DNA from: Haplodiscus bocki
Lineage: Eukaryota
Direction: 5' to 3'
Assembly: GCA_965655095.1 (NCBI GenBank)
Contig: OZ296658.1
Coordinates: forward strand, 23,622,001-23,686,000
Length of the DNA stretch: 64,000 bases
Part shown: in pieces, positions 2,366 to 48,200 of the stretch
Numbering within the stretch: the first letter of the stretch is position 1
How the letters are laid out: each line of letters opens with the position of its first letter
Notes under the pieces: model-generated
The model's input: only the letters and a program-made list of their open reading frames with translations
The model's database searches: none
Told to the model about the DNA's origin: nothing
Made by a program: the position numbers and the translations under genes

Positions 2366-2399
2366 TTGATGTCTCCGAGACCAGAGGAAAAAAGTAACT

Positions 2400-8819: not shown

Positions 8820-9065
8820 CAAAGTTCTGTTCTACCCTTCTTTTCTCCTATCCTTCCTTTCCTCTACCCTTCTATTGTTCTATCCTTCTATTGTTCTGTC
8901 CTTCTATTGTTCTAACCTTCTTTTGTTCTACCCTTCTTCTGTTCTATCCTTCTATTGTTCTACCAAACTTTTGTTCTATCCGCCTATTGTTCTATCCTTC
9001 TATTGTTCACCCATTCTATTGTTTTAAACTTCTATAGTTTTATCCTTCTGTTGTTCAACTGCCTA
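8820..9065. repeat. Pyrimidine-rich minisatellite (unit like CCTTCTATTGTTCTA)
   Basis: Directly visible degenerate tandem units inside element 1. Confidence 0.8.
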
Positions 9066-14494: not shown

Positions 14495-14975
14495 TAGACT
14501 TCAAAACTTGAAAAAAACTAAAACTAACTTATGATTCACTTCCCTGATGATAAAATTTACGTATATGTGTTTGTGTTTATATTCTTCATAATTCTTTTCC
14601 GAGCTTATACTCTATCCTTATGATCTATACTCTCACTGATTTCTTTTGCTTAGATCTTTCCATGCTCTTGATCTTCATAGTGCTTTGTCTTGCTGATTTT
14701 AATAATAATTGTAAGTCAGATGTTGATATTAATCTAAAACCTAATTTAGTTTTTTATCATAAACGAATTTCTTTACTTGACTCAACAGATAGTAAAAGCC
14801 CTTTCTTTCGAACTCACGCCTGAGACGACCTTCGTTGAGGTGTAGGAGGGCAACAGTCGCAAAAATAAAGTAGGAGCCTTTTCCGGAGTTTTAAGATAGT
14901 TTTCTAGCTCGAAATGGAGTGGCTTTTGAGACTTTCCACTTCTATTTCCAACACCCCACCACTGAACACTTCACA
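14495..14975 (+). repeat. 3' LTR of element 1 (part with demonstrated homology; probably extends upstream to ~13640)
   Basis: Homologous to 1-481. Purine tract at ~13611-13634 and TGACGTCA/TATA motifs at ~13847 and ~13984 suggest U3 upstream, but the start is not fixed. Confidence 0.8.
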
Positions 14976-21362: not shown

Positions 21363-22835
21363 CTAACCTCCCGGATGTGAATTCACCAACTCCGTAACGT
21401 CATAAACTTGTTCACGAATGATAATCCAGCAATCGTCCACCGTATCGTGCTGTCGAACTTCCTCTCGTGAATAAACTTTCTCTTTGCTTTTTATTTTTTT
21501 ATCCAGTTTGGGCAAAAACTGGGAATGGAAGGGATGTCGTTTTCGTTCATCCACTGGTCGGAGTTCTATTTCAATTTTCTTGTCCAAAATCTTGCGCCAT
21601 TTTTCCTCTTTTTTCATATCATTTTCGTAATCTGTTTGTGCTGAAATGTCGAACTTTTTCTCAGAAGGGGTTTCTCGTTTCTTGTATCCCCCAACAATTC
21701 TTTGGACTGTGTTGCTTTTGGCTTGAAGATTATGAACACCTTTTTTCTGAACCGGTAACACGTTTTCAAGAAAGTGGTTTTTCAGGGCTTGTTTGCTTTC
21801 ATGCAGATGTTCGCTTGATTGGATACTTTTACTAGTAATTTTATCGGACAAAATGTGACCCATTTCCTGGAACCCTGGGTACAGCAGAATTCTCTGGTTG
21901 TTTGGATGTTCTTTGATTAGTAAGTTGAAACAGGAGTTATCGTAAGGACAAGCTGGGTTCTTGGTTTTAGAAAGAGGTTGAGAGACCCAGTTTTGGTCTA
22001 TTGCCTTGATCGAAAGCTTGGTCGACTTTGGAATTAACCTTAGTTCCAAGGAAAACTTGAAATGGAAAAGTCGGGAATTTAATTCAAGATCACGGGTTCC
22101 TTTATGGCGCGCCGTTTCTTCAATGAAACAAGAGGTCCAATTTTGATGGTTATCGATGGAATATTCCACTGAAATTACCTTTTTTCCGAGTCCAGCAAAA
22201 GCCAAACCTTCCAGAACTACTTCGTCTCTGGCTCGTACTACGGTTCCGGTTTTTGGAACGGTTAAAAACGACATGATTGGGATTTCAACCGGAAAAGCAT
22301 TCCGGTTTTGGGTCAACTCAATGGCGAAAATTGACCCGTATCGGTCAGAGGTCAAATATCCGGGAATAATTAGTCTGAAAGGTCCTCCGGATTTTATATC
22401 TAAATTACGATTGTTGCATTTAAAAGCAAGCATTGCTCCTATGTTTGGATTCAGCAGCACTGAAAGAGGAATTTTCAAATGTTTTTCTTTATCGTCTTTG
22501 AAAATACTCGAATGGAATTCAACTGTTGTAATTTGTTCCTCGTTGATCTGGTATTTCGAGAACATTGTAGAAGTTTCTATTCCAGTGAACGTGGCCTGTG
22601 TGTACAAACTGCATTTTTCTGCACTGAACTTCTCGTCAACCAATAAGATGTCGCGATCAATGACGTCATCGAGCCACTCGAATCGGTCGAAGATCTGATC
22701 AGGAAAATCGATTCCGGAAATGAGAATGAAATCGTTGACTTTTGATAAAACATGTTCAGGGATATTTTGTTTGGGCATCATGTAAGCAGGAATTGGTGTT
22801 AGCTGTGTATAATGATCTTCACTTTCGTTTTCCAT
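21363..22835 (-). CDS. Sulfite-oxidase/nitrate-reductase-family Moco and dimerisation domains followed by a cytochrome b5 domain; divergent, probably continues in a downstream exon
   Basis: MLAFKCNNRNL...GGPFRLIIPGY, LEGLAFAGLGKKVISVEYSID..NW, KAIDQNWVSQP, then VYSREEVRQHDTVDDCWIIIREQVYDVTELVNSHPGG. The ORF ends at a donor-like GAG|GTTAGA inside the b5 domain. ATG at 22835. Confidence 0.75.
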   Translation of the reverse strand: MENESEDHYTQLTPIPAYMMPKQNIPEHVLSKVNDFILISGIDFPDQIFDRFEWLDDVIDRDILLVDEKFSAEKCSLYTQATFTGIETSTMFSKYQINEEQITTVEFHSSIFKDDKEKHLKIPLSVLLNPNIGAMLAFKCNNRNLDIKSGGPFRLIIPGYLTSDRYGSIFAIELTQNRNAFPVEIPIMSFLTVPKTGTVVRARDEVVLEGLAFAGLGKKVISVEYSIDNHQNWTSCFIEETARHKGTRDLELNSRLFHFKFSLELRLIPKSTKLSIKAIDQNWVSQPLSKTKNPACPYDNSCFNLLIKEHPNNQRILLYPGFQEMGHILSDKITSKSIQSSEHLHESKQALKNHFLENVLPVQKKGVHNLQAKSNTVQRIVGGYKKRETPSEKKFDISAQTDYENDMKKEEKWRKILDKKIEIELRPVDERKRHPFHSQFLPKLDKKIKSKEKVYSREEVRQHDTVDDCWIIIREQVYDVTELVNSHPGG

Positions 22836-24922: not shown

Positions 24923-25189
24923 GAGTTAATTTCTTTGATGGAGATAGTATAAAAGTAAATATGTTAGGAAAATAAATATAATATAAGATAAAGCCAACTC
25001 ATCTCACATCAAAGGGGACCCTCCCAAGGTGTAGCACCTTTCACTTGAGGGCCCTGGTGAAAGTACTATATCCTAAGGACCTATCAGAATCTTGACTGTT
25101 CGGCTGGTTAAAAAATAGTTTCGTAGACAACGTTACTGAGTTGAAATTCCTCTACTACAGATAGATCTCTACTACATTTTTTGATGTCC

Positions 25190-26552
25190 GAAATTTGTGA
25201 AACACTAAAGGTTTCCTTTACGAAGTTTTTCGGCACTGTGAGACAAAAAATTTTCGACGGAAACGTGATACCCCCTATTATGCATAAAATTTTTCGATAC
25301 CCCAAATTTTCTGAGACATTGAAGGGATGCCCACGAAATTTTTCGGCACTGTGAGACAAAAAATTTTCGACGGAAAATTGTGATACCCCCTATTATGCAT
25401 AAAATTTTTCGATACCCCAAATTTTCTGAAACATTGACGGGATGCCCACGAAATTTTTCATCCATAAAAACTTTTTGAAACCAAAAAATTCCTCAAAAAC
25501 ACTAGGATTCCCTTACGAAAGTTTTCGGCACTGTGAGACAAAAATTTTGACTGAAAATCGTGATATGCCCCCTCTTATCCATAAATTTTTTTCGATACCA
25601 GAAAATTTCCGGAAAACAGAAGGGTTCCTTTACAAAGCTTTCCGTTTCGGTCCTGTGAGACAAAAAGTTTCGACGACAAAACCGTGATGCCCCCCCTCCT
25701 TCTATGCATGAAAATTTTCGATAAAAGAATTTTTCTGAAACAACACCAAAGTGTTCTCCAATGAAATATTTCGGTACAGGGAGACAAACTTCGACGGAAA
25801 ATCTTGATACCCCCCTTATCCAAACTTTTTCGGTACCCGAAATTAGTGAAACACTAAAGGGTTCCCCTACGAAATTTTTCGGCACTGTGAGACAAAAAAT
25901 TTTCGACGGAAAATCTTGATACTCCCCCCCTTATCCAAACTTTTTCGATACCTGGAATTATTGCAACAGTAAAGGATTCCCCTACGAAATTTTTCGGCAC
26001 TGTGAGACAAAAAATTTTCGACGGAAAATCTTGATACCCCCCCTCTTATCCATTAAATTTTTCGCTACCGGAAATTTTCTGAAACACAGCACAGAAGGGT
26101 TCCCCTACGAAATTTTTCGTCACTGTTAGACAAAAAATTTTCGACGGAAAATCTTGATACTCCCCCTCCCTTATCCAAACTTTTTCGATACCCGGAATTA
26201 TTGCAACAGTAAAGGATTCCCTTTCGAAATTTTTCGGCACTGTGAGACAAAAAATTTTCGACGGAAAATCTTGATACCCCCCCTCTTATCCATTAAATTT
26301 TTCGCTACCGGAAATTTTCTGAAACACAGCACAGAAGGGTTCACCTATCAAATTTTTCGGCACTGTGAGACAAAAAAATTTTGAACGAAAAGTCGTGCAT
26401 AGAATACAGAAATCAGTGGTGGAATTGATGTTTGTAGAAAACTTTCGCAAACTAGATTTTAAACAGTAGTCTCGTTTTTAACTGTGGGCAAATGTTGATC
26501 AAAATATTTGTATTTCTGCGAAAAATATGCCGGTGCTAGCCGGCCGTCTTGT
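25190..26552 (+). repeat. Tandem array of ~115-125-bp units ending in a Helitron-like terminus
   Basis: About 10 units with core TTTTCGGCACTGTGAGACAAAAAATTTTCGACGGAAA; terminal hairpin GCCGG-TGCTAG-CCGGC then CTTGT at 26529-26552. Confidence 0.8.
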
Positions 26553-31600: not shown

Positions 31601-31605
31601 GACTT

Positions 31606-33197
31606 TGTGACGTGTGTGGTGTGGTGTTTTCATATTCTTTTTCTGCTCGAGTGGCTTGCTTTTATTGTATTGAATGGTGGTGGCTGAATTTTATTCTTTC
31701 TTAACTATACGTCTTAAATAATCCACTCTATGGTGTTTGGCAGAACCGTAAGACGTTCGGTTCACAACCATGCAAATCTTCCGTACTGCAGAGCTTCCAG
31801 GTTCTACTTGGTTCGGGTCAATATGCTACGCTGGTACCTTACCGTCACTTAGCCCACCGCACGGTATAGAGTGAATTTGGTTTGGAATACTATCAACTCT
31901 ATGCAAACGAGTTGTTTCTTAATTCTAAATTTTATAATCTCGATTAATGGTGGTGGTGGTTCTGACTTTCTATCTTCTCAAATTTTAACAAGCTCTGAAC
32001 AAATTTCATCTTTCTTTAATTTTCTTTCGAATGCGTGTTTCAGGTTCTCGTCACTTAAATGGTTTTGTTAGTAGTAAGTCTGGGATTACTCTACTACTAT
32101 TGAGTTGAAAAAGTAGTTTTAACTACTTTGGGGTTACAAAAATTTTGATCTGTTTAGAGCTTGCTATGGTAAAAGTGAAAGAAATGAGATTATGAAGTTG
32201 ATTGAATTGATTTTTCGTTAAGCTTTGACAAAATTGTAGTTTACAATGAATGAAATCTAATATATCTCAAAGAACAGAACTCACGACATTATGGTTTGAA
32301 TGTTGGTGTGGTTGATCGATGGTTGGAGGTCGTCTATGCAGTCTTCGTGGGGCAGTCTTTGGATATTTGTGATTTGATCGTAGGATTTGTTCAAGAGAGA
32401 TTCGAAAATTTATGAAATTGAAAAGAATACAAAATTTAGCAAGAAAAGTTGAACGTCGAACGTTCAATAAAATTTTTGAAGACGTCTAACGTCAAAGAGT
32501 TTTTCAAAATTGCAAAAGTCAAAAAGAACGAGCAGCTGAGTTTTGAAAAGTGGGGTTCTAAAGGCAGAGTTTTGCGAGTCCGCCTTTTATAGTTTTTGTC
32601 ATGCTCAACTGTGACCAGTAATATTTTGCTGGTCATTGTCTGGTGCATGATCAGCCTTTCATGCTTCAAGGTTTTACTATTTTTGGGGTATCTGTCAAGG
32701 AATCATCCCCCAAAAGTTACTATTATTATTTCAACTGTTCTAAGTTTGAAGCATTGACGAAATTTTGTTTCTTCGCTTCAAGAAAATAATTCTTGATCGA
32801 AAGCAGTTGGGAGTTACTATTTCTATAAGTAACTAAAATTTGATGGCTACTGAATTTAAGCATCTGATGACATTCGTTGTTGAGTTGGCGGCCAATTTTG
32901 CTGACGTACATTGATTTGAATTTTGGCGGTCGTCTCCACAACAGAGGCTGTTTCGTCAGGAGAATAAATTTAGATAGTCTTCTGGTGTGGTGAGATTGTG
33001 CCATCAATAGCGACGTGATCAAATATTTTATATGAAGCACCGGATAAGTGAGTTCTTTAATTATAAAAAGCATCGATTGAGTGGTTAAAATATGCGCGTT
33101 TAAGATTCAAGCTAAGTCATGTTTAAGTTTAACGTTGTTTCAATTCTTCATTCTTTTCAGCATTCTTTCATATATTATGACTTATGGCATTGTCATA
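31606..33197 (-). repeat. 3' LTR of element 2
   Basis: Direct repeat of 44273-45864 (offset 12667); termini TATGAC...GTCACA on the element strand; AATAAA at 31666-31661. Confidence 0.97.
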
Positions 33198-33230: not shown

Positions 33231-33591
33231 CTAGTGTTGTTGAATATGAAAGTCGCCCAAACAGTACGGTTGGCCTTTGGTGTACGCGTCCACCGCAGAA
33301 GGTCCACAACATTTGAGAATAGCTTGAGCGAGAGTGTCATCTGTAGCAACAGGTGGTGGATCAGTCTGCGTGGATTGATTGGCCATGCGGGGCGCACTAA
33401 TGAAGAGTTGTGATGGTGCGCGCAGGAAACTTCGATATGTTGTATGGTTTGTTCGTTTGAGGACGACCGGGCCAGGTGGAGAGGTGATTTTGAGGACCCG
33501 GTATTGATTGTTATCAAGGAGGTGAACCACATCACCTACGCGAACGTTGTGAGTTCGCCCATCACACGTTGTCAAGGGAGCAAAAGGAAGA
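33231..33591 (-). CDS. Accessory ORF4 (spliced; ~121 aa), beta-rich N-half plus STQTD motif
   Basis: T-rich tract then AG| acceptor at 33593-33592; 1 nt then in-frame LPFAPLTTCDGRTHNVRVGDVVHLLDNNQYRVLKI...NQSTQTD; ends just before the PPT. Confidence 0.65.
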
Positions 33592-33794: not shown

Positions 33795-34221
33795 TTATTC
33801 TTCAGTTTGTAAATGTCTAATATTTTGTTGGGGGCGTCTTCGGGGTGAAGGACGGCGCTGGGCTGGCTGGCTGGTTGGAGTGGCTTGGGCAAGAGTACTA
33901 GGATGGATACGAGGTGCTTCTAATCGAAAATAGAGGTGGGGGTGCTGGCAAACGGGACACTTCTCGTACCCACGGGAAAGGAGAAAATTTAAGCAAGGGG
34001 GACAAGTATAATGCGGGATATGGTGATGGATGTGTAACGTAATGATCTTATGTACGGGGAAAGTTTTTAAACAAACGGGGCAGGAGCGATAAAGGGGGCC
34101 GAGAGGGCAGCGGGGATGAATGGGTGTATCGTCATATAGCGGGGCATTCATGGAGTCGGATGGGTCTTGCTGTCGGCGGACGAGGTAGTTTTGGTCGTTG
34201 TGGTAGGTTTTGAATGGTGCG
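33795..34221 (-). CDS. Accessory ORF3 (spliced; ~143 aa), RING-like zinc finger
   Basis: GTTTTTTATTTTAG| acceptor at 34223-34222; CPVC...TLH.....PHYTCPPC..........CPVC; Arg-rich C-terminus. Confidence 0.8.
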
Positions 34222-34381
34222 CTAAAATAAAAAACTATTGATACGTAAAAATTTATAAATGTGGTAATCTAAAAATCTAAAATGCTGAGTAAGATGAATG
34301 CAAAAGTGGTATAAAAGCAGTTCGTGTAAGTTTGAAACGAATGTTTGAAGGTTTAAAAGTTTTAGGTTCGCAAAATCAAAT

Positions 34382-34748
34382 TCAACCAGGGCGGCCATCA
34401 GCAGGGGGTGCGAGGACGGGTCTCACCCGTTCTTCTCTTTCAATAGCAGTTTTTCGAAAATTAATGGGGTCGCGGTATAACTTGAGGAGGGCACGGCGGA
34501 CAATTTGATATCGGACGCGATCCCAGCGATTGAGGTTGGGGAGTGAATCAGAGTGGTATAAAAAGAGAACAAATTCGTTCCATCGGGGGTCTTTATAGGG
34601 GAAGTGTACCGCAGTTTGGTCATTTAGGGTGAGTTGAATGGTGCCCTCCGGGAGGATCATCAAGTGGGTGATTGGGTAGCGTATGTCATTTAGCACACAC
34701 GCCCATGTAAAATCCAGGGAGACGGCCTGCCATGTGTGTGCATCGGCG
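34382..34748 (-). CDS. Accessory ORF2 (spliced; ~123 aa), unknown function
   Basis: CATTTTCTTTTAG| acceptor at 34750-34749; 1 nt then in-frame ADAHTWQAVSLDFTWACVLNDIRYPITH...; GC-rich island between AT-rich spacers. Confidence 0.7.
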
Positions 34749-34947
34749 CTAAAAGAAAATGATTACGAGGGACGCGGCTACGCATCACGAAGAGAGCTTT
34801 ACGCAAAAAGCTAGAACAAATTATAAAATATATTCGTGAGCAAGTGAAAGAGATATAAAAGATAGTGAACGGATTAATATAATGTAGTATTGAGTTTTAA
34901 CGAGTATTCGTGATTGTTTATTAAGTTGAACGAAAAGTTTATGTAGT

Positions 34948-35332
34948 CTAACGAAAGTTGAGTATGGAAGCCATTACGAAGGGATCGATGTAGGGGATGG
35001 GACGGGAACCACCACAAGAAGGACAGATTGGGTTGGTGAGGTAGTAGAGGGTGTAGGAGCACGGGTTGCAGACAGGAGTAGACTGGGGGTCAGTGAGGCA
35101 CTTGGGATTAAAGCAATGAGGAACGGCATAGTCGAGGTTACATTTTGTACAAATGGGAATACCAAGGGCCTGGAATGGGTCCACGGGGGCACGACAAGCG
35201 GGGCACATGTGGGTATTGTATTGGATAAGGTAACTGCAACAAGAGCGGCAGATTCGATGGGGCACGTTACTCGGGGCGTGGAGGGTGACAAGGGTATCAA
35301 CATCGCGCAGGCAAACGAAACACTGTTCAAGG
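34948..35332 (-). CDS. Accessory ORF1 (spliced; ~129 aa), RING-like zinc finger plus further Cys clusters
   Basis: CTAAT branch point, pyrimidine tract, TTTCAG| at 35334-35333. Extending to the acceptor completes the finger: CFVC...TLH.....PHRICRSC..........CPAC, then CTKC..HC....C and CNPC...CPSC. Confidence 0.8.
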
Positions 35333-35480: not shown

Positions 35481-37857
35481 TTAAGCTGATGTAGTTTGGG
35501 TAGTGTCGACGTGAGGTACCGGAGCTGGAGTGAAGGTGGTCAGAACCAACGGAGGTGTTGTACGAATGGTTCTGGTTGGTGCGGTGACGTCCGGGTACAG
35601 TTTTTCTTCATCTTCGGCGGAGTAAGGAAACGGTGCGTTAGCTTCAGTTTTCAGTAAAGCTTCCTTAGCAAGAGCACGGAGTGCAGTAAATTCATCACGA
35701 GTCAAAATTAAAAATGAAGAGTCTGAGTCTGGTTGGATGTCGTTCGTGACATGAATAAATTGGCCAGATTTATTCTTGAAGAAACGACGTGGGGCACAGC
35801 AAAGTGCACGTGCCTGTCTGTGAAAGAGTGGAAAGTTAAGTAAAAACAAAAATAAAGAAAGTGCGATTGATCCGCCTGCGATTAAGAATGAAGTCTTCGC
35901 TGGTACAAATTTGTCAAGTGCTGCTTCTGTTGCAGGATTGAGAGACGTATAGTGTGCTACAATTGGTTCGGTCAATTTTTGCAAAGTTTCAGGATCCATT
36001 CGTCTAACATCTGGAATTTCAGTCAGTTCCAACTGTACGCTCTCAAGAATTGATTTCCGGGCGGCACCGATTGAGTAACTTGGAAAATTGAGTCGATCGA
36101 AAGGGACATTTTGAAAAACTTGATTCAAAGGTGGTGCCAGTTTGATTGTTGCAATATACGGTTCCGGAGTTGTTTTACATGCGTCCATATCAGGTGACAG
36201 GACAAGATCGCCTTGATTAATATAAATGGTACTCTCACAACTCGGTCGAAGTACACAAGCCTGACAATCAATGGTGGACAAACTGAGTCCGTTGCGGCTA
36301 TCGTTCTTAATGTCCATTGTGGGGTTGCGAGAAATGAGGTGGTAAACGCCATTTGCCAGGTAGATCGCCTGTGGGGCTTCCGGGAGAAGGACAGAGGAAA
36401 CGGGGCAATTTCGGAGTGCTGGTATGTCTTGATTAAAATACAACGACGTCAAACAGAGAAGCGTTTCATCAGTAGTAGTCGAAAAGCCTTTGCGGCACAG
36501 TTTGATTCGATTACTGCCCGTGCATTGTTGTAGCGTAGACGCGGCTAACTCTGCAAAATTCGTATTGTCTGTTGCAATCGCGACGTAGGGTTTCGGGAAT
36601 TGGTAAACTGATGCCGTCTTGCCGTCGTCATTGGGCTGATACAGAGGTTCCGCTTGAAAGACATTGTACGTAGCGGACTTAGAGTTCATCGGGATGCCAA
36701 GTACAAAAGAGATGCCTTTAGGTAACATTGTGACTTCTAGTACGATTTGCAATTCGTAATAGATAGCTTCGAATCCCGATGGTATAGCAGGTGTCAGTTT
36801 GCTACCTTTCCGAAATTCTTCAGCGGCTAATTCTTGTACTATTGTGGCAAGTTGAGTGGGGAGTAGGAATTGTGGTGTGATATGTCCAGTAGCGAGAGAT
36901 GAGATGATTGAAAAGAAATTGTTTCTATACGCGTAAAATGCTGCACGAAAAGCTTTGAAATGAGTGTACAAAGTGCCGATTTGTGATAAATACAGTTGTG
37001 AAGACTGGAGAAAGTGGCGGTACGCACTTTCAAATTGGTAGCAACGGAACGCATCTTCCAGAGTGTATACACGTGCAAGCATATAAGAAATATGTTCGTA
37101 AGTGTCGTCTTTAATGCGTTCAACACTTTCTTGGGTCAGACGAATTTCGTCTCGGAGTAAAGCAAGTTTTTCGTTGTTTTGATCTTGGACGGTCTGAAAT
37201 GCCTGTTGTTGTGTCTTTTGTTGTTTGGTTACTTGATCGAGTTCTCGTTCTAAGTCTTCAGTAGAGTCGCAAAGATTGAAAATGGAGAGTGCGCTACATG
37301 CTGCATCTTTGATCGGTTCGCCTAAGATGAATCCAGTGCCAGCGGCAAGTGCTGCGACAGCACCAATGAGTCGTCGTGTTCTGTTGTGAGGCGCTTCTTC
37401 ATCGATAGAGCGTCTTTGTCGAGGGGCTCCGAGAGACTCGACTGGTGGGAAGAATGATTCCGCGATATCGCTCAAAGTATGAAGTTCGGATTGGGCTTCA
37501 TTAATTTCGGTTGTAAGATGGTTGTACATGTTTTCCATTTGTTGTATAACCGGTATGTGAGATTCATTGAACGTGTTGTTTTTGCATCCTGCCCGTGCTA
37601 CGCGGTATTGCATGCGTGAGAGCTTTGTCTTGCTTTCGAGGATAACAGCATGCACGCCGTCGATATTGAGATCCGGGAGCGTCGGAAAAGGAGAGAACAG
37701 TCGAATTTGACTCTCGCTTTCTGAAGTCACAACTTGATATTTAAAAATGAAAGCGGCTCCTCGTTCAAATTCCGGTAGTTGTTGGTTGTTGACAGTCGAA
37801 TATTGTATGGTGTTTGCAATGAGAAGTGTTGTCCAGATGAAAATTGGCGTTGGGATC
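35481..37857 (-). CDS. env: Envelope glycoprotein, class I F-like fusion protein (spliced; ~793 aa)
   Basis: Acceptor TCTCCTTTTAG| at 37859-37858 precedes a signal-peptide-like IPTPIFIWTTLLIANTIQYS; furin-type sites RQRR and RTRR; fusion peptide LIGAVAALAAGTGFILG; heptad repeat; Cys-rich region; TM FLIAGGSIALSLFLFLLNFPLF. Confidence 0.9.
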
Positions 37858-37874: not shown

Positions 37875-40800
37875 TTATTTCTGATGATAAGTTTTGCGTT
37901 GTCTTGCAGGAGTTTTACTAAATTTCGTTCCTGACTGTTTTTGTTGTTTTCGCTCTGGAGAGTTATAACTTTTAACTATATCAGGAAGATATGCCGTAAA
38001 AAGCGGTTCTGCTTTTCTTTGTGAGGACGTGTTAGGTCGTAGTTGCATGTTAGACGTGTTTGCAGGAGGTGTTCTCCTAAGACTTCTAGCTGCGGCGTCC
38101 ACAATTTCCGTGACGTTGTCAACTGATAATTGACTTTCGTGGAGAAAGACATTCTCAGGTATAAGAGGTTGTATGTCAGTTTGAGGAGTAACCGGTGGTT
38201 GTATCGCAACGTCATTTCTGGTGTGTGGACTTGGGGGTTCTCGTGTTGGTGATGGCGAGAACACAGGAGGTGATCTCGTTACTTCACGTCTTGTCGGTAC
38301 GGGCGAAATAAGTGGCGAAATTCTACTTGGTGTAGTTGATGCAGTTGTTCGTTCTACGGTAGGTGTTGGTGTGAAAATACTAGAAGATGCAGGCAGAAAA
38401 CTAAGACAATCATCGTGATTAAGTGTTCCATCTATATATTTGCGTGCGTCTGTTAGGTTTTGAGTTGACTGAAAACTTCTTGGTTTATTTCTTGTAGGTA
38501 CATTGGACGTTGGCGGAGGTTCGAAAAATGGTTTCAATCTATCATAGTGTACAATTTGTTGTTTTGCAGAGTTTTCTTCTTTAATTCTGAATGTGACATC
38601 GTTCAAACATTTTTCAATGATATATGGTCCTTTCCAAGGACTTGCGAACTTAGAAGTTGTTCCTACAGCAATGACTGGATGATAAAGTAAAACTTTTTGT
38701 CCTTCTTTGTATGTTGGACCGTGAACCTTTTTGTTATAGATAGCATTTCGGCGTTTTTGTTTTTCATTCAAATTACGTCGGACTAACTCAAATGCTCGTT
38801 GGAATGCGCGTTGTTTGTTGTGCACAAATTCATGAATGTCTGTAGTTACATTTTCTTGTGGGTTAGGATACATGCAATCTAAAGGTAAACTCAACTCTTG
38901 TCCAAAAACTAGGAACTGCGGTGTATATCCTGTTGATTCATGTACCGAAGATCGATATGCCATCATTACGTAAGGCAGTTGTTGTGACCAGTTGCTTTGT
39001 TCTTCATTAATACATTTTGCTAACATGTTTTGTAAAGTTTTATTCATTCTCTCGATCACCGCATTTGACTGAGGATGAAAAGGTGTTGTGCGAGTTTTGT
39101 CCATTTCAAGAAGTTGCATTAATTGTTCAAAAAGTTTTGATTCGAAATTTCGGCCTTGATCACTATGAAGGCTGTGCGGACAACCAAAGCGACTGATCCA
39201 ATGATCAACTAATGCGTTTGCTGTTGTGGTAGCTGTTTGATCTGGTAATGGTATTGCTTCGTACCATTTTGTGAAGTGATCGCCAATTACTAAGATGTGT
39301 TTATTTCCATTTGACATTGGCAAAGGTCCCATAAAGTCAATTCCAATGTGATGAAAAGGATAACTGGCTTGCCATTCTACTAAAGCGTGATGATATTTCT
39401 TGGGTGGTCCCGAACGTTTTTGACATTCCGGGCACCGACTGACAAACAATTTTGTGTCTTCCTGCTGTCCTGGCCAGTAGAATCTTTGTTTTATTTTCTC
39501 TGAGGTTTTAGCAACTCCTAAGTGTCCGGCTGTTGGTGATGAATGACATGCTGATAGAATTTCTTGTGTCATTGACGGTGGTACTATTTGTTGCAATACC
39601 ACTTGGTTATCTGCGGTTTCGAATTTCCTGCACAAAATTCCATCGATGAGTTGTAAACTTTTCAGTTGGTTGTTAAGTTGCCATGCTAGCCTAGGAAGTC
39701 CTTGCAATTCTTGTGAGGTGGGCACTTTTCCCTTTTCAATCCATTCAATCAATTTAGACAATGCCTCATTTTGTCGTTGCGCTTGTCCTAACGCAGAGTG
39801 AACTGGTGTTTCTGTCTGTTTTCGTGATTGTTCATCTTTATTTCGATCATAGACTGTGATTGTGAGGTTCGACTGTGCACAAATTTCTCTGATAAGACGT
39901 TCAACTTTGTACCATTCTAATCGATCAAGTCCACAACCGGCTTTTGGCATACTAATTTCAGTGACTTTATGTTCATTTGCGTGCTTCGTCATTGCCTCTA
40001 GTGATTGTCGCAAACTATCGTACGTTGGTTTTTGAAAATAGCGGTTTTTTGTAACTAGGTGGTAGATGAAACGTTCGTCTACTTGTTGGACAAAAAGGGG
40101 AGAGTTCGTACTCTCAGGAAAATTGTACGGGAACTTGCGTTTGAAACTTCGGGCAATTCCCGCGGACATTTTAAAGTCTGATGATATGCAATGTGCTAGT
40201 GAGTCTTCTGAGTCAAAAAGATTACCATTTTTATGAATGAGTTCGAAAAATTTTGTTTTCACTGGTTTATCTATGTTTTCTTTGCTTTGAGAACTAGTAA
40301 CTTGATTTACAATGGGGATTCGTGAAAGTCCGTCGGCGTGACCAATACTTTTGCCGGGTCTGTGTTGCACTTCATAATCAAATGCCGCTAACTTTTCGAG
40401 CCATCGTGCTGTTAATCCATCTGGATCTTTAAAGTTATGCAACCACTGCAATGCACGATGATCAGTCACAATTTTGAATTTCCTCCCGAGCAGATAATGT
40501 TTAAAGTGTCGAGTAAAAGTTACAATTGCTAAAAGTTCTCGTTTTGTCGCAGAATAGTTTGTTTGAGATTTTGAAAATGCCTTAGATGCGTAGCAAATAG
40601 CTCGCTCTTTACCGTCTTGCACTTGGGCTAATACTGCTCCCATTGCTGTTAGACTTGCGTCAGTGTACAAAATGAATGGTTCTTTTACGTCCGGAAAGGC
40701 TAAGATTGGTGTAGAAGACAAGTGTTTCTTTAAATTTTCAAACGCTTCTTGCGTTTCTTCTGTCCAAGTAAAAGAACTCTTAATTTCACTAGCTTTATGC

Positions 40801-42554
40801 AATGGTCGGGCTATCATAGCGAAGTTTTTGATATACCGTCTGTAATATGAACAAAGTCCCAAAAACGACTTGACATCTGTTTGATTTTGTGGTACTGGAA
40901 AGTTTTGAACTGCTTTGACTTTTTCGGGATCGGCTTCCAATCCATTTTTGCTGATTACATGTCCTAAGAACTGAACTTTTGTTTGGAAAAAGGCGCATTT
41001 TGTCGGATTGATTTTTAGATTCGCCTCACGAAATCTTTGGAAAACTTGTTGCAGTCTTTTAATGTGCTCCTCTGGAGTTTTTGAAAAGATGATACAATCA
41101 TCTAAATAAGGTACTGTAATGTTCCACGTGAGTCCAACAAGCACGTGTTCCATTAGACTTTGAAATGTGTTCGGACTTCCCGTTAGTCCCATTGGCATGC
41201 GTAGCCATTTAAATGATCCGAAAGGAGTACTAAACGCTGTATAATTTTGGCTTTTGGGTTCCATTGGTAGCTGATAAAATCCCCAAGACATATCTATTGT
41301 TGTGAAATAAGCACTTCCTTGAAGTGTATCGAAAATTTCCTCTATTGACGGTATCGGCCAGCAAGACTTGATTGTTTGTTCATTCAGTTTTCTATAGTCT
41401 ATTACTAATCGTAGTTTTCCATTCTTTTTTGGAACTAGCATCGCTGGTGCACTATATGGACTATGACATGGTGTAATCAACTCTTTGTTCATGAAGGCAT
41501 CTATTTTCTCTTTTAAATCATCTTTGTAATGCACTGGCATTCTTCTATTCGGTAATTTTATTGGTTGTGAGCCTGGCTTCACATCTATTCTATGACTAGT
41601 TGCATCGCATTTTCCGAGGTCCCATTGATTGATTGAAAAGATATCACTATAGTCATCTATTAAATTTCTAAAATCTGCCCTGCAGTTATTGTTTATTTCT
41701 TTGCTAATTGCTTTCTTTACATTCTCCAAGTCGTACTTGGGATCTACTTCATTATAATTTTTCTTTTGTTTCTGATTTATTTCTTGTATCAGACGATCTG
41801 ATACCAGTTGGGACGATCCCAATGTTGTATCTTTGTAAATTGTTAAAACTTCATCATTTGTATTTGCTACTGTGATAGGAACTATTCCTTTTTCAAAACT
41901 AAACAAAGCATCTTGTGCTATTTGAGTTTCATTATTTATGAAGCGCTCGTGCGGTTCAAACAAAGCGACTCTCGCTACTGGTGGCGCTTTCCAACCAGGA
42001 ATTGTGCCGGGCACAATCATAACATGTTGTGGTGGTATTGAGACTTTCTCTAATGCCACGACTCTATAAACTTGTTTTTCGTCGAACGAAAACTGTTTTC
42101 TGTAAAGAGGGACCAGTACATTTTTATCAATTTTCAATTTGCCTTCAGAAAATAGTGCATCACATTTATTTGCTTCAAGAAAATCAAGTCCCAGTAAACA
42201 ATCTGATGCTGCTTCTATTAAGACGTAAAATGTATGCTCGTACGTTTTGGGACCTATTTTGATTGGTACGGATACTGTGCCTTTAATTTGAATGGGCATC
42301 TGATTTGCGCTGCTGAGTCTTGTTGTACTTGGCTGTATTTTGACTTGATGATTTTCATTGATTTGATTGAAAAGTTTTTCACTAAGACATGACACGCTCG
42401 CTCCACTATCGCAAACGGCTTCGACCTGTTTGTTCAAAATTGAAATCTGTACATACAAACTTCGATGATCCACAACGGAATTAAGAAGCTGAGTAAGTGG
42501 GCCTTCATTAGTGTCGTCTACGTGTTGACCCCGGGACGTAGACTGGTCTAGTTT
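37875..42554 (-). CDS. pol: Pol polyprotein PR-RT-RNase H-macrodomain-integrase, reached by -1 frameshift from gag
   Basis: DSGA protease, YLDD RT, YTDAS/RELLAI RNase H, HHCC plus IDF/SDQG/ERMN integrase, GPY motif. The frame is open from the slippery site; the listed 1532-aa ORF starts at 42473. Confidence 0.97.
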   Translation of the reverse strand, partial: KLDQSTSRGQHVDDTNEGPLTQLLNSVVDHRSLYVQISILNKQVEAVCDSGASVSCLSEKLFNQINENHQVKIQPSTTRLSSANQMPIQIKGTVSVPIKIGPKTYEHTFYVLIEAASDCLLGLDFLEANKCDALFSEGKLKIDKNVLVPLYRKQFSFDEKQVYRVVALEKVSIPPQHVMIVPGTIPGWKAPPVARVALFEPHERFINNETQIAQDALFSFEKGIVPITVANTNDEVLTIYKDTTLGSSQLVSDRLIQEINQKQKKNYNEVDPKYDLENVKKAISKEINNNCRADFRNLIDDYSDIFSINQWDLGKCDATSHRIDVKPGSQPIKLPNRRMPVHYKDDLKEKIDAFMNKELITPCHSPYSAPAMLVPKKNGKLRLVIDYRKLNEQTIKSCWPIPSIEEIFDTLQGSAYFTTIDMSWGFYQLPMEPKSQNYTAFSTPFGSFKWLRMPMGLTGSPNTFQSLMEHVLVGLTWNITVPYLDDCIIFSKTPEEHIKRLQQVFQRFREANLKINPTKCAFFQTKVQFLGHVISKNGLEADPEKVKAVQNFPVPQNQTDVKSFLGLCSYYRRYIKNFAMIARPLHKASEIKSSFTWTEETQEAFENLKKHLSSTPILAFPDVKEPFILYTDASLTAMGAVLAQVQDGKERAICYASKAFSKSQTNYSATKRELLAIVTFTRHFKHYLLGRKFKIVTDHRALQWLHNFKDPDGLTARWLEKLAAFDYEVQHRPGKSIGHADGLSRIPIVNQVTSSQSKENIDKPVKTKFFELIHKNGNLFDSEDSLAHCISSDFKMSAGIARSFKRKFPYNFPESTNSPLFVQQVDERFIYHLVTKNRYFQKPTYDSLRQSLEAMTKHANEHKVTEISMPKAGCGLDRLEWYKVERLIREICAQSNLTITVYDRNKDEQSRKQTETPVHSALGQAQRQNEALSKLIEWIEKGKVPTSQELQGLPRLAWQLNNQLKSLQLIDGILCRKFETADNQVVLQQIVPPSMTQEILSACHSSPTAGHLGVAKTSEKIKQRFYWPGQQEDTKLFVSRCPECQKRSGPPKKYHHALVEWQASYPFHHIGIDFMGPLPMSNGNKHILVIGDHFTKWYEAIPLPDQTATTTANALVDHWISRFGCPHSLHSDQGRNFESKLFEQLMQLLEMDKTRTTPFHPQSNAVIERMNKTLQNMLAKCINEEQSNWSQQLPYVMMAYRSSVHESTGYTPQFLVFGQELSLPLDCMYPNPQENVTTDIHEFVHNKQRAFQRAFELVRRNLNEKQKRRNAIYNKKVHGPTYKEGQKVLLYHPVIAVGTTSKFASPWKGPYIIEKCLNDVTFRIKEENSAKQQIVHYDRLKPFFEPPPTSNVPTRNKPRSFQSTQNLTDARKYIDGTLNHDDCLSFLPASSSIFTPTPTVERTTASTTPSRISPLISPVPTRREVTRSPPVFSPSPTREPPSPHTRNDVAIQPPVTPQTDIQPLIPENVFLHESQLSVDNVTEIVDAAARSLRRTPPANTSNMQLRPNTSSQRKAEPLFTAYLPDIVKSYNSPERKQQKQSGTKFSKTPARQRKTYHQK
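39849..40250 (-). other. TARG1/OARD1-like macrodomain within Pol
   Basis: NGNLFDSEDSLAHCISSDFKMSAGIARSFKRKF...IYHLVTK....KPTYDSLRQSL...ISMPKAGCGLDRLEW.KV..LI. Confidence 0.9.
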
Positions 42555-42557
42555 AAA
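42499..42557 (-). promoter_or_regulatory. -1 ribosomal frameshift signal
   Basis: U UUA AAC directly before the gag UAG, 7-nt spacer, 8-bp stem GTCTACGT/ACGTAGAC; pol is in the -1 frame. Confidence 0.85.
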
Positions 42558-43840
42558 GTATTTTGTTGCTGCGAGGAATTTGCGTTGCGGTCTTGATTGT
42601 AGTTTCGTGAATTTTGGTTGAAATTCGAATTTTGCTGCCTATTGTTTTGGTTTTGTCGTGGTGCTCTACATTCACGAGACATATGTCCCAGTCTTCCGCA
42701 ATTAAAACAAGCTTGACAATCCCTGGATTGGTGATTTGTTCTGTTACAATGCCTGCATGGTTGTTGATTTGTGTTGTTTCTGTTTTGTTGCTGATTTGGT
42801 GTATTGCGATTGTTGTTATATCTGTTGTCTTGTTGATTGCCACTGTTGTTGTATCTATTGTTTTGATTGTTATTGTTATATCGGTTGCTATTGTTGTTTG
42901 AATTTCTATAATTTGGATTTTGATTTGTACTTGCACTTTGTCTATGTGGTCCGGGACTATTAAAACGAACGGAGCGACCGTCGGTACTACTTGAACGTGA
43001 ACTCGAAGAGTTTTGATTTGTTTGTGGTAGAGCTTTTTGAATTTCTTGTCGGATTGTCTGTATTAATGTTCCCATCATATCGTCTTGTGAGGTGGATGTT
43101 GTTGCCATCAATGGTTGCGGGGGAGTGGCTGAAACCATGTTTACTGTGGCCTGGGATCCACTTCTAAGACTGGGATCCATTTCCATGAACGCATGTAGTT
43201 CGACTGCGAGGGCTAGAGCAGCATCCGGACTGGCTGGTTTACTCTTTCGAAGTTCCCATCTCAGCTGGGGATCATGAAGTCCTTCGATGAAACTAGTGAG
43301 AACCATTTGTTCTTCGATGAGGGGTTGTCCCCTATAAACTCTTCTAGCAAGTGTTCGAATATCACAAAGAAACGCGGCGATAGTTTGGTTTGGTTGCTGC
43401 CGCGCAGCTTTCAGTTTTGCTTTAAGAACTTCAACATTTGTAGTGTACGTGGTTCGAAAAGCTGCTACTAATTGATCAAAATTCTGTTGTTGTGCTACGG
43501 TTAAGGTTGTGTAAAAATGCAAGGCGTTTCCTTTGAGTCTTAATGCAAAATAGTTCGGTCTGTTATCAGTGGTGGCCGTGTGCCATCCTGAAAGTGTTGC
43601 GGCTGTTGTGAATTGTTGTAAGTAATCTTCAAAATCTCCTTCGCCGGTGAAAGCTTCTGGCATTAAACACGACGGGAGGGCCGAAAAAACTGCGCCGGCG
43701 GTGGCCGTCGACGTACTTGGTGTGGTCGGCGTGAGAGGGGTGAGAGAAACGGAACCGCCGCCGCCTGATCCGGATCCAGGTCCGCCGCCACCACCGCTTC
43801 GTGGTGATCCGCTTCTTGATGGGGGGGTTGACGACGCCAT
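42548..43840 (-). CDS. gag: Gag (430 aa)
   Basis: LKGNALHFY capsid-like region, two CCHC knuckles (CRHCNRTNHQSRDC, CFNCGRLGHMSREC), Asn/Gln-rich flanks. Confidence 0.95.
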   Translation of the reverse strand: MASSTPPSRSGSPRSGGGGGPGSGSGGGGSVSLTPLTPTTPSTSTATAGAVFSALPSCLMPEAFTGEGDFEDYLQQFTTAATLSGWHTATTDNRPNYFALRLKGNALHFYTTLTVAQQQNFDQLVAAFRTTYTTNVEVLKAKLKAARQQPNQTIAAFLCDIRTLARRVYRGQPLIEEQMVLTSFIEGLHDPQLRWELRKSKPASPDAALALAVELHAFMEMDPSLRSGSQATVNMVSATPPQPLMATTSTSQDDMMGTLIQTIRQEIQKALPQTNQNSSSSRSSSTDGRSVRFNSPGPHRQSASTNQNPNYRNSNNNSNRYNNNNQNNRYNNSGNQQDNRYNNNRNTPNQQQNRNNTNQQPCRHCNRTNHQSRDCQACFNCGRLGHMSRECRAPRQNQNNRQQNSNFNQNSRNYNQDRNANSSQQQNTLN

Positions 43841-44250
43841 TTTTGAACAAAAGCGTTCTTAGATCTTATTGAGTTTTAACCGAACAAAACAAAAAAACAC
43901 TGTTTTAGAGTTTTAAAGTTTTAAAGAAAAAGAAAATCAAAAAAACTGTTAAGAAAAAAACACACTTAAAGTTGTGATAAACACGCAGTGTCTTAAAATT
44001 TTGTTCAATCAACTTCTTTTTCTTTTATTAGCCAGCTCTTCTCAAGAGCGAAACAAGTAGTTTTAATTTTAAGTTGAGTTGAGAGCGACCGTTCGCGAAA
44101 GCAACCGTTCGAGAAAGCAACCGTTCGAGGAAGAGCAACCGTTCGTGGTTAATGTTTTATCACTTACCTTGTACTGGCAACTGAAAACTTTAAGATTTAA
44201 GTTTTACGTTTTACAAAAAAAACCCAAAAACAAAAGAAGGAGAAAGTCAG

Positions 44251-44268
44251 ATCCCACCCTTGTCACCA
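44251..44268 (-). other. Primer-binding site
   Basis: TGGTGACAAGGGTGGGAT, 4 nt inside the 5' LTR boundary; complementary to a tRNA 3' end ...ATCCCACCCTTGTCACCA (Ser/Leu-like; identity not established). Confidence 0.85.
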
Positions 44269-44945
44269 TTTTTGTGACGTGTGTGGTGTGGTGTTTTCAT
44301 ATTCTTTTTCTGCTCGAGTGGCTTGCTTTTATTGTATTGAATGGTGGTGGCTGAATTTTATTCTTTCTTAACTATACGTCTTAAATAATCCACTCTATGG
44401 TGTTTGGCAGAACCGTAAGACGTTCGGTTCACAACCATGCAAATCTTCCGTACTGCAGAGCTTCCAGGTTCTACTTGGTTCGGGTCAATATGCTACGCTG
44501 GTACCTTACCGTCACTTAGCCCACCGCACGGTATAGAGTGAATTTGGTTTGGAATACTATCAACTCTATGCAAACGAGTTGTTTCTTAATTCTAAATTTT
44601 ATAATCTCGATTAATGGTGGTGGTGGTTCTGACTTTCTATCTTCTCAAATTTTAACAAGCTCTGAACAAATTTCATCTTTCTTTAATTTTCTTTCGAATG
44701 CGTGTTTCAGGTTCTCGTCACTTAAATGGTTTTGTTAGTAGTAAGTCTGGGATTACTCTACTACTATTGAGTTGAAAAAGTAGTTTTAACTACTTTGGGG
44801 TTACAAAAATTTTGATCTGTTTAGAGCTTGCTATGGTAAAAGTGAAAGAAATGAGATTATGAAGTTGATTGAATTGATTTTTCGTTAAGCTTTGACAAAA
44901 TTGTAGTTTACAATGAATGAAATCTAATATATCTCAAAGAACAGA

Positions 44946-44956
44946 ACTCACGACAT
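44946..44956 (-). promoter_or_regulatory. Putative shared leader: start codon plus splice donor ATG-TC|GTGAGT
   Basis: First ATG downstream of the TATA box, A at -3, consensus donor in phase 2 matching all five downstream acceptors. Confidence 0.75.
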
Positions 44957-45250
44957 TATGGTTTGAATGTTGGTGTGGTTGATCGATGGTTGGAGGTCGT
45001 CTATGCAGTCTTCGTGGGGCAGTCTTTGGATATTTGTGATTTGATCGTAGGATTTGTTCAAGAGAGATTCGAAAATTTATGAAATTGAAAAGAATACAAA
45101 ATTTAGCAAGAAAAGTTGAACGTCGAACGTTCAATAAAATTTTTGAAGACGTCTAACGTCAAAGAGTTTTTCAAAATTGCAAAAGTCAAAAAGAACGAGC
45201 AGCTGAGTTTTGAAAAGTGGGGTTCTAAAGGCAGAGTTTTGCGAGTCCGC

Positions 45251-45258
45251 CTTTTATA
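45251..45258 (-). promoter_or_regulatory. TATA box of the element 2 LTR
   Basis: TATAAAAG on the element strand, implying a start site near 45225. Confidence 0.65.
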
Positions 45259-48200
45259 GTTTTTGTCATGCTCAACTGTGACCAGTAATATTTTGCTGGT
45301 CATTGTCTGGTGCATGATCAGCCTTTCATGCTTCAAGGTTTTACTATTTTTGGGGTATCTGTCAAGGAATCATCCCCCAAAAGTTACTATTATTATTTCA
45401 ACTGTTCTAAGTTTGAAGCATTGACGAAATTTTGTTTCTTCGCTTCAAGAAAATAATTCTTGATCGAAAGCAGTTGGGAGTTACTATTTCTATAAGTAAC
45501 TAAAATTTGATGGCTACTGAATTTAAGCATCTGATGACATTCGTTGTTGAGTTGGCGGCCAATTTTGCTGACGTACATTGATTTGAATTTTGGCGGTCGT
45601 CTCCACAACAGAGGCTGTTTCGTCAGGAGAATAAATTTAGATAGTCTTCTGGTGTGGTGAGATTGTGCCATCAATAGCGACGTGATCAAATATTTTATAT
45701 GAAGCACCGGATAAGTGAGTTCTTTAATTATAAAAAGCATCGATTGAGTGGTTAAAATATGCGCGTTTAAGATTCAAGCTAAGTCATGTTTAAGTTTAAC
45801 GTTGTTTCAATTCTTCATTCTTTTCAGCATTCTTTCATATATTATGACTTATGGCATTGTCATAACTTAATAGCCACCATTTCCACCAGCAATCGTAATG
45901 CATTTGATAAATCGTCTTATCATGGATTTCAAGTGTTTTTCTGGTTACCGGCAAAATAAACTCAATGGCGAAAAAATAACAATCTCTAAAAGAAATCACA
46001 CGAAGCCTCTTTTGTTGAAATGTTGTGTTAATGCATGTCTTGTACCAAATTGAAATGACTGTGTTTTTCTATATTTGAATGGATAAACATTGATGTATTG
46101 TTTTTCAGCGACATAAATTTTTCAGCGAGATCTCGAAAGTTTTGCTGATGTTCTGTAAAATTGTTTTTGCAGAGCTAGTCTTACTCAGAGTTTAATTTTT
46201 TTTATTTTTCTGATTTTGAAGATTCCCAACTATTTTGTTGCGTTTTTTCATCAAAGGTTAGAAAGCAACTGAGTTGTTACTACAAGTATTTTTTTCCATT
46301 GTTCTCCACAAAAAGCAGTTGGAAGAATTTATGAACCAGAAGTTGAAGATTATCTATCCTGTGTAAGGGTCTCGGAGAAAATCAGCGCTAAACAGCGGTG
46401 GTTCACACGTTTGACGTTTTTCAGCGCTGTTTTGTGCTGATGTAGAAAACCTTAGAATCACCACCGTTAATCAGAGTTGTTTCAAACCCAATCAGCCCTG
46501 TTTTTTAATGAATCAAAAATGTTTAGCGCTCGCTAAAGGTGGGTTGCATATTGAAAAAAAACTGCTTTTAAAGTCTTGGGGAAATATCATGATCATCTAA
46601 TGAAAAATTCTATAGAATGTCCCAGTTGCAGAAAGACTTTTTCCGTTAAAAATTGTCGAAGGTTATAATTCAGTGATTCTAATTCTGACAACACATAGTT
46701 CTCAGTGAACGCAATTACGGTGAGTGAAATATGTCTGTCGAAGAACTTGGTTGCAAAAATCTGTTTTGTTTGACTTTCGTGCGATCAGAGCATCTGTCCA
46801 GAGGACTTGCATGAATAGGAATGCGCGTAACCGTCGGCCACTAAAGAACCGAAAAGACTCTGACCAAAGAATTAGCTCACATTTCGTTTTTTTTTTTTCA
46901 ATAGTTTTCCTAAGTAACAGTTCTCACTGCACGTTGCTCCGTGAGATACTTGCTTGCTCCCTGTAAACTTATCCTATGTCAAAGACTCACTGGATAATTA
47001 AACCACATATTTTACATGGTAATGCGTGCTGTACATCGAACTGTGAACAGCAGCCATCCCAATTCGGAGCCGTTTAACGCATGACAAGACTGTAATAAAA
47101 AAATACAAAGCTGGGAAAATGAGTTAAGTAACAGATATTCAATCTTTGATTATTTTCTGTCTTTTTCTCACCGTACCCGGGTCGAAGTTTTGGTTGCAAA
47201 TTTTCCGGCATAAGAGTTTGAATTGCGGTCAAAATTAGCTACAAAACTACTATTTATCTGAAACAAAAAAATCTAAGGAAAATTAAAATACATTCAAAAC
47301 AGAACTCTATATTGTTTTTGAAAAAGAAATTTTTACGTGCTCAAACTTGTTATACTTTTTGGCTGGTTGTTGCTAACACCGAAAGCCCACACTTTTGAGG
47401 AGCATATGCTCTGAAAGCTTCGGAACACTTTGTTCATAGAATTTTTTTGAAAAATTTCGAATGGCAATAGTCTTTAGATTCTTCTCGTAGACCTTTATTG
47501 CCAGCAAGCAAAGTAACCATTTTTTATTGTTTAGAGTTCTTTTTTTTAAAAAAAGCCCACGTAGGAATTGTTTCTCTCAGCGTTCATTTTTGATCTCATG
47601 TTGATATCAAAAAACTAGTAGAAAAAGTTAACTTAATTGGAGGAAGCAAAAGAATTTAGGGAGGTTAATGTATACATTATTCACATCCAACAGGGATGCA
47701 AAAAGAACGTAACCGCCCGTTTACTTTGCAACCTTCTACAGTTGAACAACTACGAGTTAACAGAATTGGTTCATGACTACTTCTCTCTTTACGACTATCA
47801 TATTTTGTACGAGTAAACCAGCAGTGGGATTTGACATAACCGACGAACACATATTTTTTTGTTTTGAAATGATTTTTTTTTCGACGGGACAGCTATAATA
47901 GGCAGTTGCAGTTTTGTTCAAAACAGACTCAGAGTTTCCAAGACATTTCTTTTTCTTGGAAAGAGGCAAGATTCTACATTTTTACTCAAATCAGTTGCTT
48001 CTAACATTTTTTTCTCAACGATGCACTTTGAACGTCAAACGTACAAACCAGAAGACGTCAAGGACGATTTGTCAGAATTTCTCATTTTTTCATATCTTTA
48101 GCAGGTAAAAGGAATAAGAGCAGTTGCTTTTTACCGGATTTGATGCGCCCATACTGTTTGTTTCTCTCTCTCTCTCACACTGCTTTTAATTGTCAAAAAC

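Follow-up and report, generated by a model that had tools for sequence, protein, structure and literature searches.

The analyzed stretch of Haplodiscus bocki DNA (the window; 64,000 nucleotides, contig OZ296658.1, positions 23,622,001 to 23,686,000) carries a complete env-bearing Ty3/gypsy LTR element on its minus strand. Four short frames, ORF1 to ORF4, occupy the interval between env and the 3′ LTR of this element (Table 1), which bears out the proposal of an earlier sequence-only reading that ORF1 and ORF3 are accessory genes of a retroelement. LTRs, a primer-binding site (PBS), a polypurine tract, gag and the order protease, RT, RNase H and integrase identify the element as Ty3/gypsy. The element is intact and, with both LTRs identical, was recently inserted. 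The gag frame ends at a UUUAAAC slippery-type site. Comparison of the PBS with the host genome yielded one match, at which no tRNA was called. The element family is large, with 705 first-look ORF3 candidates in the genome, 150 of which were scored. Several observations concern the anatomy of the element and its copies. A macrodomain lies between RNase H and integrase (about 39890-40080, minus strand; Pfam E 4.5e-4). In one copy the 5′ region of gag is fused to the middle of ORF3 at a short shared word, and in another the env-accessory block is tandemly repeated. An antisense GT-AG intron-like stretch is found in U3 (33048-33160, plus strand), with a donor conserved among copies that suggests a spliced antisense RNA.

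Table 1. Features of the LTR element, given as positions in the window
Feature	Position	Strand	Description
Target duplication, 4 nt	45865-45868 and 31602-31605
5′ LTR	44273..45864	-	1592 nt, no difference from 3′ LTR
TATA-like box TATAAAAGG	45250..45258	-	putative promoter
Candidate starter exon end	44945..44956	-	ATG TC, then donor GTGAGT, phase 2
PBS	44250..44268	-
13-nt candidate leader micro-exon	44168..44180	-	consensus donor AAG/GTAAGT
gag	42548..43840	-	430 aa, zinc knuckles
pol	37875..42638	-	protease, RT, RNase H, macrodomain, integrase (Pfam)
env exon	35481..37857	-	791 codons, starts at phase-2 acceptor
ORF1 exon	34948..35332	-	127 codons
ORF1 C2H2C4 RING (predicted)	35322-35194	-
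ORF1 second Cys cluster	35151-35014	-
ORF2 exon	34382..34748	-	121 codons, without known family
ORF3 exon	33795..34221	-	141 codons, small N-terminal region
ORF3 C2H2C4 RING (predicted)	34082-33948	-
ORF3 Pro/Arg-rich tail	33857-33831	-	RRPSPRRRP, residues 122-130
ORF4 exon	33231..33591	-	119 codons, without known family
3′ LTR	31606..33197	-	polypurine tract just before

The env-like frame, as read from its sequence, contains a basic cleavage-type site (RTRR), a hydrophobic peptide and a transmembrane helix. PF12259 was found on 2 of 117 env homologues, and the window env itself gave no direct Pfam or PDB match. An extra phase-2 acceptor at 35817 (minus strand), directly past the transmembrane helix, could yield a 111-residue env-tail protein. 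Its AG is present in 56 of 60 matches and the frame is open in all five env-deleted copies, evidence that is weak because the AG also belongs to an Arg codon. ORF2 and ORF4 showed median pairwise dN/dS values of 0.10 (30 distinct full-length CDS) and 0.16 (32 distinct full-length CDS), respectively, and their profiles had no PDB or Pfam match. The STQTD stretch of ORF4 (residues 73-77), which resembles the binding motif of the dynein light chain LC8, is invariant in 13 of 13 aligned alleles of 52-88% identity, and the N-terminal half of this protein looks, by eye, like a small beta-barrel. Elsewhere in the window, a decayed and distantly related LTR element (1-14970, plus strand; LTRs 86% alike over 483 nt) retains a macrodomain and env-like remains and gave no RING match. 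An intronless 490-codon ORF (21363-22835, minus strand) encodes molybdopterin-oxidoreductase and cytochrome b5 domains in a nitrate-reductase-like order, and an array of about 115-120-nt repeats spans 25177-26391.

ORF1 and ORF3 each carry eight Cys and His residues in the order C,C,H,H,C,C,C,C (C2H2C4). The ligand positions are C4-x2-C7-x10-H18-x6-H25-x2-C28-x2-C31-x11-C43-x2-C46 in ORF1 and C47-x2-C50-x12-H63-x6-H70-x2-C73-x2-C76-x11-C88-x2-C91 in ORF3. These patterns, pointed out in the sequence-only reading, are real: any given position is retained by 32-33 of 33 distinct full-length ORF1 copies and by 33-34 of 34 ORF3 copies. Unlike the ligand His, the other His residues of the HIHHH stretch vary (13-30 of 34 copies). 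The spacings originally given hold except for the last spacer, which comprises 11 residues and not 10. Also present as described are the extra Cys cluster of ORF1 (C61/C64/H72/C73/C78/C88/C91/C103/C106; eight Cys, one His) and the RRPSPRRRP tail of ORF3; 30 of 32 distinct ORF3 copies have at least six Arg or Lys within their 30 C-terminal residues. Both alternative frames contain stops in all 33 ORF1 and all 34 ORF3 copies, which rules out an overlapping 109-codon ATG frame over ORF1.

Comparison across copies, suggested at the outset as a check on function, showed that both genes are under purifying selection. Median pairwise dN/dS was 0.13 for ORF1 (33 CDS, 436 pairs; median dS 0.81) and 0.18 for ORF3 (34 CDS, 506 pairs; median dS 0.95). 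These values are based on distinct full-length CDS from 47 loci and on pairs with a pS of 0.1-0.7, after removal of broken copies and of two divergent ORF3 alleles. The copies used for dN/dS and conservation are the best-scoring ones and thus overstate intactness, and since copies are related, the counts also overstate independence. Paralogy of the two RING units is supported by profile comparison (HHalign probability 97.8%, E 8.5e-13). Of the further claim that they were duplicated within the element, the paralogy stands, while a tree of 46 rows and 54 columns, from which three element-like sequences without the full pattern were excluded, is compatible with a single origin of the element RINGs (p-AU 0.41) and does not demonstrate it.

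AlphaFold models of the protein chains, built from copy alignments, predicted a RING fold with two loops and a central helix for both proteins. Confidence was high over residues 1-50 of ORF1 (pLDDT 76-88) and residues 41-100 of ORF3 (pLDDT 88-93). Residues 59-127 of ORF1 are unfolded in the model and its second Cys cluster stays below a pLDDT of 50; compared with the RING profile, this cluster (residues 58-116) reached an HHalign probability of only 5.5%, and 9 of 12 members gave a weak match to a double zinc ribbon. The top Foldseek and VIA-align matches were almost all RING or U-box domains. Among these, the ORF1 model aligned with RNF125 at an rmsd of 1.8 over 48 columns (probability 1.00) and with the RNF213 RING at an rmsd of 1.9 over 51 (Z 6.0), and the fold match of the ORF3 model reached a Z of 5.0. 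All structural matches were above E 0.001 with Z scores of 5-6 throughout, and small zinc domains often stay at such low Z scores. The window ORF1 and ORF3 themselves fall below Pfam cut-offs, and a sister allele passes that of zf-C3HC4_3 (28.8 vs 27 bits). A model of an ORF3 homodimer with zinc gave no answer (score 0.00). ORF1 and ORF3 almost certainly contain a RING fold.

The E2-contact positions of RINGs are listed in the available text of PMC7010608, and of these positions, Ile or Val before C2 and Pro after C7 are present. The residue following C8 is Arg in 27 of 29 ORF1-slot RING strings. In case of the ORF3 strings, Lys is found in 22 of 36, Gln in 10 and another residue in 4; the window ORF3 has Gln, which is neither Arg nor Lys, and one sister allele has Pro. 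We consider E2 recruitment and ligase activity to be likely for ORF1 and to be slightly favored for ORF3. Alternatively, the RINGs could be zinc-binding adaptors without ligase activity that function in the element's own cycle, namely in RNA export or in particle assembly or budding with env. This explanation is modeled on arenavirus Z, which has a role of this kind and is found among the sequence and fold matches. One ORF1 allele matches Pfam zf-P11 (E 6.4e-5), ORF3 has an Arg-rich tail, and the RINGs would share their first exon with env, all of which would suit an adaptor. Retention in ORF1 of the E2-contact positions, including the Arg that follows C8, speaks against it, and taken together with the behavior of RING alleles described below, we regard an adaptor function as unlikely.

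The C2H2C4 order has been described for the Mdm2/Mdm4 RING in the available text of PMC6372010. The RINGs had been called atypical based on the His at the third ligand position; this His is indeed present and the order as such was already known. The Mdm2/Mdm4 RINGs (PMC6372010, available text; PDB 6SQP, 6SQO, 2VJE) are alike in ligand order and provide a weak top Foldseek match for ORF3, whereas the element proteins have a longer His-His loop, lack p53-binding, acidic and RanBP-type domains and are encoded by a retroelement. It could be envisioned that the element RINGs are MDM2 mimics which ubiquitinate or block p53-family proteins, thought of here as restraining retroelements. Besides the shared ligand order, MDM2 RING chains take the first four places in the Foldseek search with the ORF3 model (E 0.05-0.2), and the host genome (1.5 Gb) contains two p53-family loci. 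By sequence, however, RING1B (E 0.0014) is matched better than MDM2 (E 0.08 or worse), MDM2 is absent from the ORF1 sequence-search matches and from the best 50 matches of each wide fold search (ORF1 and ORF3), and in the structure search with the ORF1 model other RINGs rank ahead of it. Further, the His-His spacing is 4 in the MDM2 RING and 6 in the element RINGs, and no Pfam match to a p53-binding SWIB-like domain was detected in the 127- and 141-codon exons. In the host genome, four SWIB matches were found, none of which read as Mdm2, a test that is weak for a split gene. The His-His spacing of the element RINGs also occurs in unnamed proteins other than MDM2. A profile search of 1.84 billion representatives returned 53 matches, about ten of them to unnamed proteins that have a His-x4-8-His pattern and group weakly (82/73) with the element RINGs in the tree. 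No relative was found in the viral contigs searched, and small viral RING proteins appeared as weak matches in BFVD (best E 0.004) and in the ESM Atlas (0.88-0.92, under its recognition mark). Because other RINGs match better by sequence and no p53-binding domain is found, the predicted element RING would be a scattered C2H2C4 variant that may work like the Mdm2 RING, with kinship to MDM2 as a candidate only; mimicry of MDM2 is very improbable.

The sequence-only reading had missed how ORF1 and ORF3 are likely expressed. Neither begins with ATG, and position 35332, given there as an end coordinate, is exactly the first base past a splice acceptor. In fact, none of env and ORF1 to ORF4 opens with a start codon. 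All five are preceded by acceptors consisting of a pyrimidine tract and AG (env, 37857; ORF1, 35332; ORF2, 34748; ORF3, 34221; ORF4, 33591), and all of these are in phase 2. When distinct 5′ ends were scanned for the strongest nearby acceptor in any phase, phase 2 was obtained for env in 15 of 15, ORF1 in 50 of 51, ORF2 in 41 of 42, ORF3 in 51 of 56 and ORF4 in 57 of 60 cases. In-frame ATGs near the start are rare (env 1/15, ORF1 6/51, ORF2 8/42, ORF3 6/56, ORF4 5/60). Five acceptors would share the donor phase by chance with a probability of 1 in 243; counting the two RING acceptors as one duplicated unit raises this to 1 in 81.

A fitting start codon is located in the LTR. About 300 nt downstream of TATAAAAGG, an ATG-TC is directly followed by the donor GTGAGT, and 117 genomic places have the box 270-300 nt before this starter. 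The entire block, ATGTCGTGAGT, is exact in 29 of the 30 LTRs compared, which were those taken upstream of a PBS, and its ATG is the first after the TATA-like box in 28 of 29. Among 1582 LTR 11-mers, only the two that form the ATGTCGTGAGT block were found in all 29 LTRs, the single LTR without the block being excluded; because some stretches start inside U3, this test is fair for R and U5. The starter is kept even in LTRs whose U3 fails to align. As TC followed by any base encodes Ser, a single exon would supply all five genes with Met-Ser. Without splicing, the RNA reads ATG TCG TGA, a two-codon upstream ORF followed by a stop. We also noted an ORF of 21-24 codons in R (MKFVQ...; 44676-44611, minus strand, and the 3′ LTR copy) that is present in 25 of 30 LTRs, with in-frame indels, a kept stop and a weak phase-1 donor inside. 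If an acceptor in R were used, the upstream ORF formed by the starter would extend to four codons.

Another donor of consensus type, at 44168, is conserved as well, and the starter may therefore be joined indirectly. The RINGs could thus be real ligases expressed from another leader, which would be trans-spliced or consist of the 13-nt micro-exon and a coding exon upstream of it. The AAG/GTAAGT donor at 44168 is a full consensus, scored as retained in 19 of 20 copies and found in divergent ones too, the phase-2 frame of the micro-exon is free of stops, and the weak phase-1 donor of the short ORF in R would fit such an upstream exon. Yet an in-frame ATG upstream of the 44168 donor is absent in 21 of 21 sequences, frame and stop of the short ORF persist past its weak donor, and no other stretch of the LTR is as well conserved as the ATG-TC block, making a different leader improbable. 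A spliced leader ending in AUG was ruled out since it would need phase 0. The pyrimidine following the accessory acceptors cannot discriminate between donors because 77 of 174 four-fold sites are pyrimidine-only. A retroposed spliced copy was likewise rejected, as the sole match of starter followed by pyrimidine equals the control rate and is unrelated to the element. The predicted sites were not represented among the 15 joints listed (126 further; contigs, four runs of unrecorded kind), which has no bearing on expression. From the arrangement of signals in the DNA, it is likely that a first exon running from the TATA-like box to ATG-TC would be joined to one of five phase-2 acceptors, with unspliced RNA stopping two codons on.

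To what extent the RING genes vary between elements is seen from a comparison of 11 elements with the window copy. Identity is 97-100% for RT and 95-99% for integrase, and mostly 88-100% across gag, pol and env, while slot by slot it is 33-98% for ORF1 and 39-96% for ORF3. At least three allele classes exist per RING slot, synonymous sites of divergent RING alleles are near saturation, and the slots are uncoupled. Such old alleles shuffled on one backbone would represent what host conflict tends to leave. Alleles that diverge to 33% and swap freely are more readily explained by a host partner that varies than by a constant partner within the element and in this respect also speak against the adaptor explanation.

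LTR pairs about 9.25 kb apart revealed a RING-less sublineage. Among 10 stretches retrieved, 8 were of this type, and all 8 have a deleted or frameshifted ORF1, no detected ORF2 or ORF3 and a broken ORF4. Two forms exist, an 11-kb form that keeps env, again at odds with RINGs serving as adaptors in a cycle with env, and a 9.25-kb form without the env ectodomain. An open gag frame is seen in all 5 of 5 cases from this sublineage and an open pol frame in 2 of 5. At least 28 places match the RING-less accessory region at 87-100%, at least 10 of them at 99-100% (40 of 1052 candidates scored), and the sublineage has multiplied recently. As it still multiplies, the RINGs are not needed in cis and may work in trans or under certain conditions only. 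Multiplication of RING-less copies and the lack of a known target would also be expected if the ORFs were captured cargo, or ligases regulating the element's own proteins, with no role in counter-defence. Low dN/dS at a dS near 0.8-0.9, close to saturation, together with several old alleles per slot excludes neutral cargo, and we deem this explanation as a whole most improbable.

On balance, we lean towards the view that ORF1 and ORF3 are conserved paralogous accessory genes, spliced from the LTR, that likely encode ubiquitin ligases directed against restricting host factors. Here, the ATG-TC exon of the LTR would be spliced to a chosen phase-2 acceptor, yielding Met-Ser fused to env or to one of ORF1 to ORF4. 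The RING products would bind E2-ubiquitin, while substrate or location may be chosen by the additional parts of both proteins, namely the N-terminal region and basic tail in ORF3 and the second zinc cluster in ORF1. The putative substrates would be host restriction or silencing proteins, an identity for which we see the case as evenly balanced and for which no result of the analysis points to any particular host target. Any benefit of the RINGs would be conditional or shared in trans. More tentatively, this invertebrate-type lineage could possibly have evolved the design of complex retroviruses independently, with swappable RING ligase alleles engaged in an arms race and RING-less cheats using the products of helpers.

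Complex retroviruses (lentivirus, deltaretrovirus, spumavirus) express small genes beside env via a 5′ donor and alternative 3′ splice sites; most of their accessory genes start at an ATG of their own, and these viruses recruit host ligases rather than encoding any. The element is alike in having small genes near env and a choice of splice sites and belongs to a different lineage (Ty3/gypsy). DNA viruses use RING E3 ligases such as herpesvirus ICP0 and baculovirus IE2/PE38 against host defence. Compared with the RINGs of large DNA viruses (ICP0, IE2, PE38, giant-virus), most of which are annotated as C3HC4, only weak matches to small viral RINGs were observed. Errantiviruses, as far as described in the available texts of PMC13524379 and PMC3383448, share the LTR-gag-pol-env order and a 4-nt target duplication with the present element, in which the F-like features of env are putative, whereas the present element has four further genes after env, which are predicted to be spliced. 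According to the available part of a 2012 review, accessory genes had not been shown for Drosophila errantiviruses (PMC3383448), and the terms 'RING', 'accessory' and 'splic' are absent from the main text of a 2026 survey (PMC13524379). Other invertebrate LTR elements are alike in carrying extra genes past pol or env. The available texts describe an extra ORF3 with spliced expression in bdelloid Juno/Vesta (PMC5408684), ubiquitin-related domains in the polyprotein of planarian Burro (PMC6431247) and a RING annotation in Isis-like/Osvaldo gag (PMC3630058). These extras are nucleases, esterases or polyprotein domains, in contrast to the duplicate stand-alone RING genes with one LTR start codon found here. 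Neither a stand-alone RING accessory gene nor an LTR starter exon was found for any LTR element in the open literature (few subscription journals, outside Repbase and supplements). Extra ORFs in LTR elements were therefore known before, while the predicted stand-alone RING pair and LTR starter exon appear to be new.

Retroviruses borrow host ligases through adaptors, and an accessory toolkit of the kind proposed here is more typical of complex viruses. With a shared start exon, the sequence behind any phase-2 acceptor would become an expressible gene, which would offer an LTR element a simple route to gain, swap and lose accessory genes. As the start codon would be supplied by the LTR exon, ATG-based annotation would miss such genes. 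The presence of RING-positive and RING-less sublineages in one genome makes the role of these genes testable by comparison. If our reading is true, the stand-alone RING ligases would further provide direct bait for retroelement-restricting proteins of an animal lineage that has been little studied.
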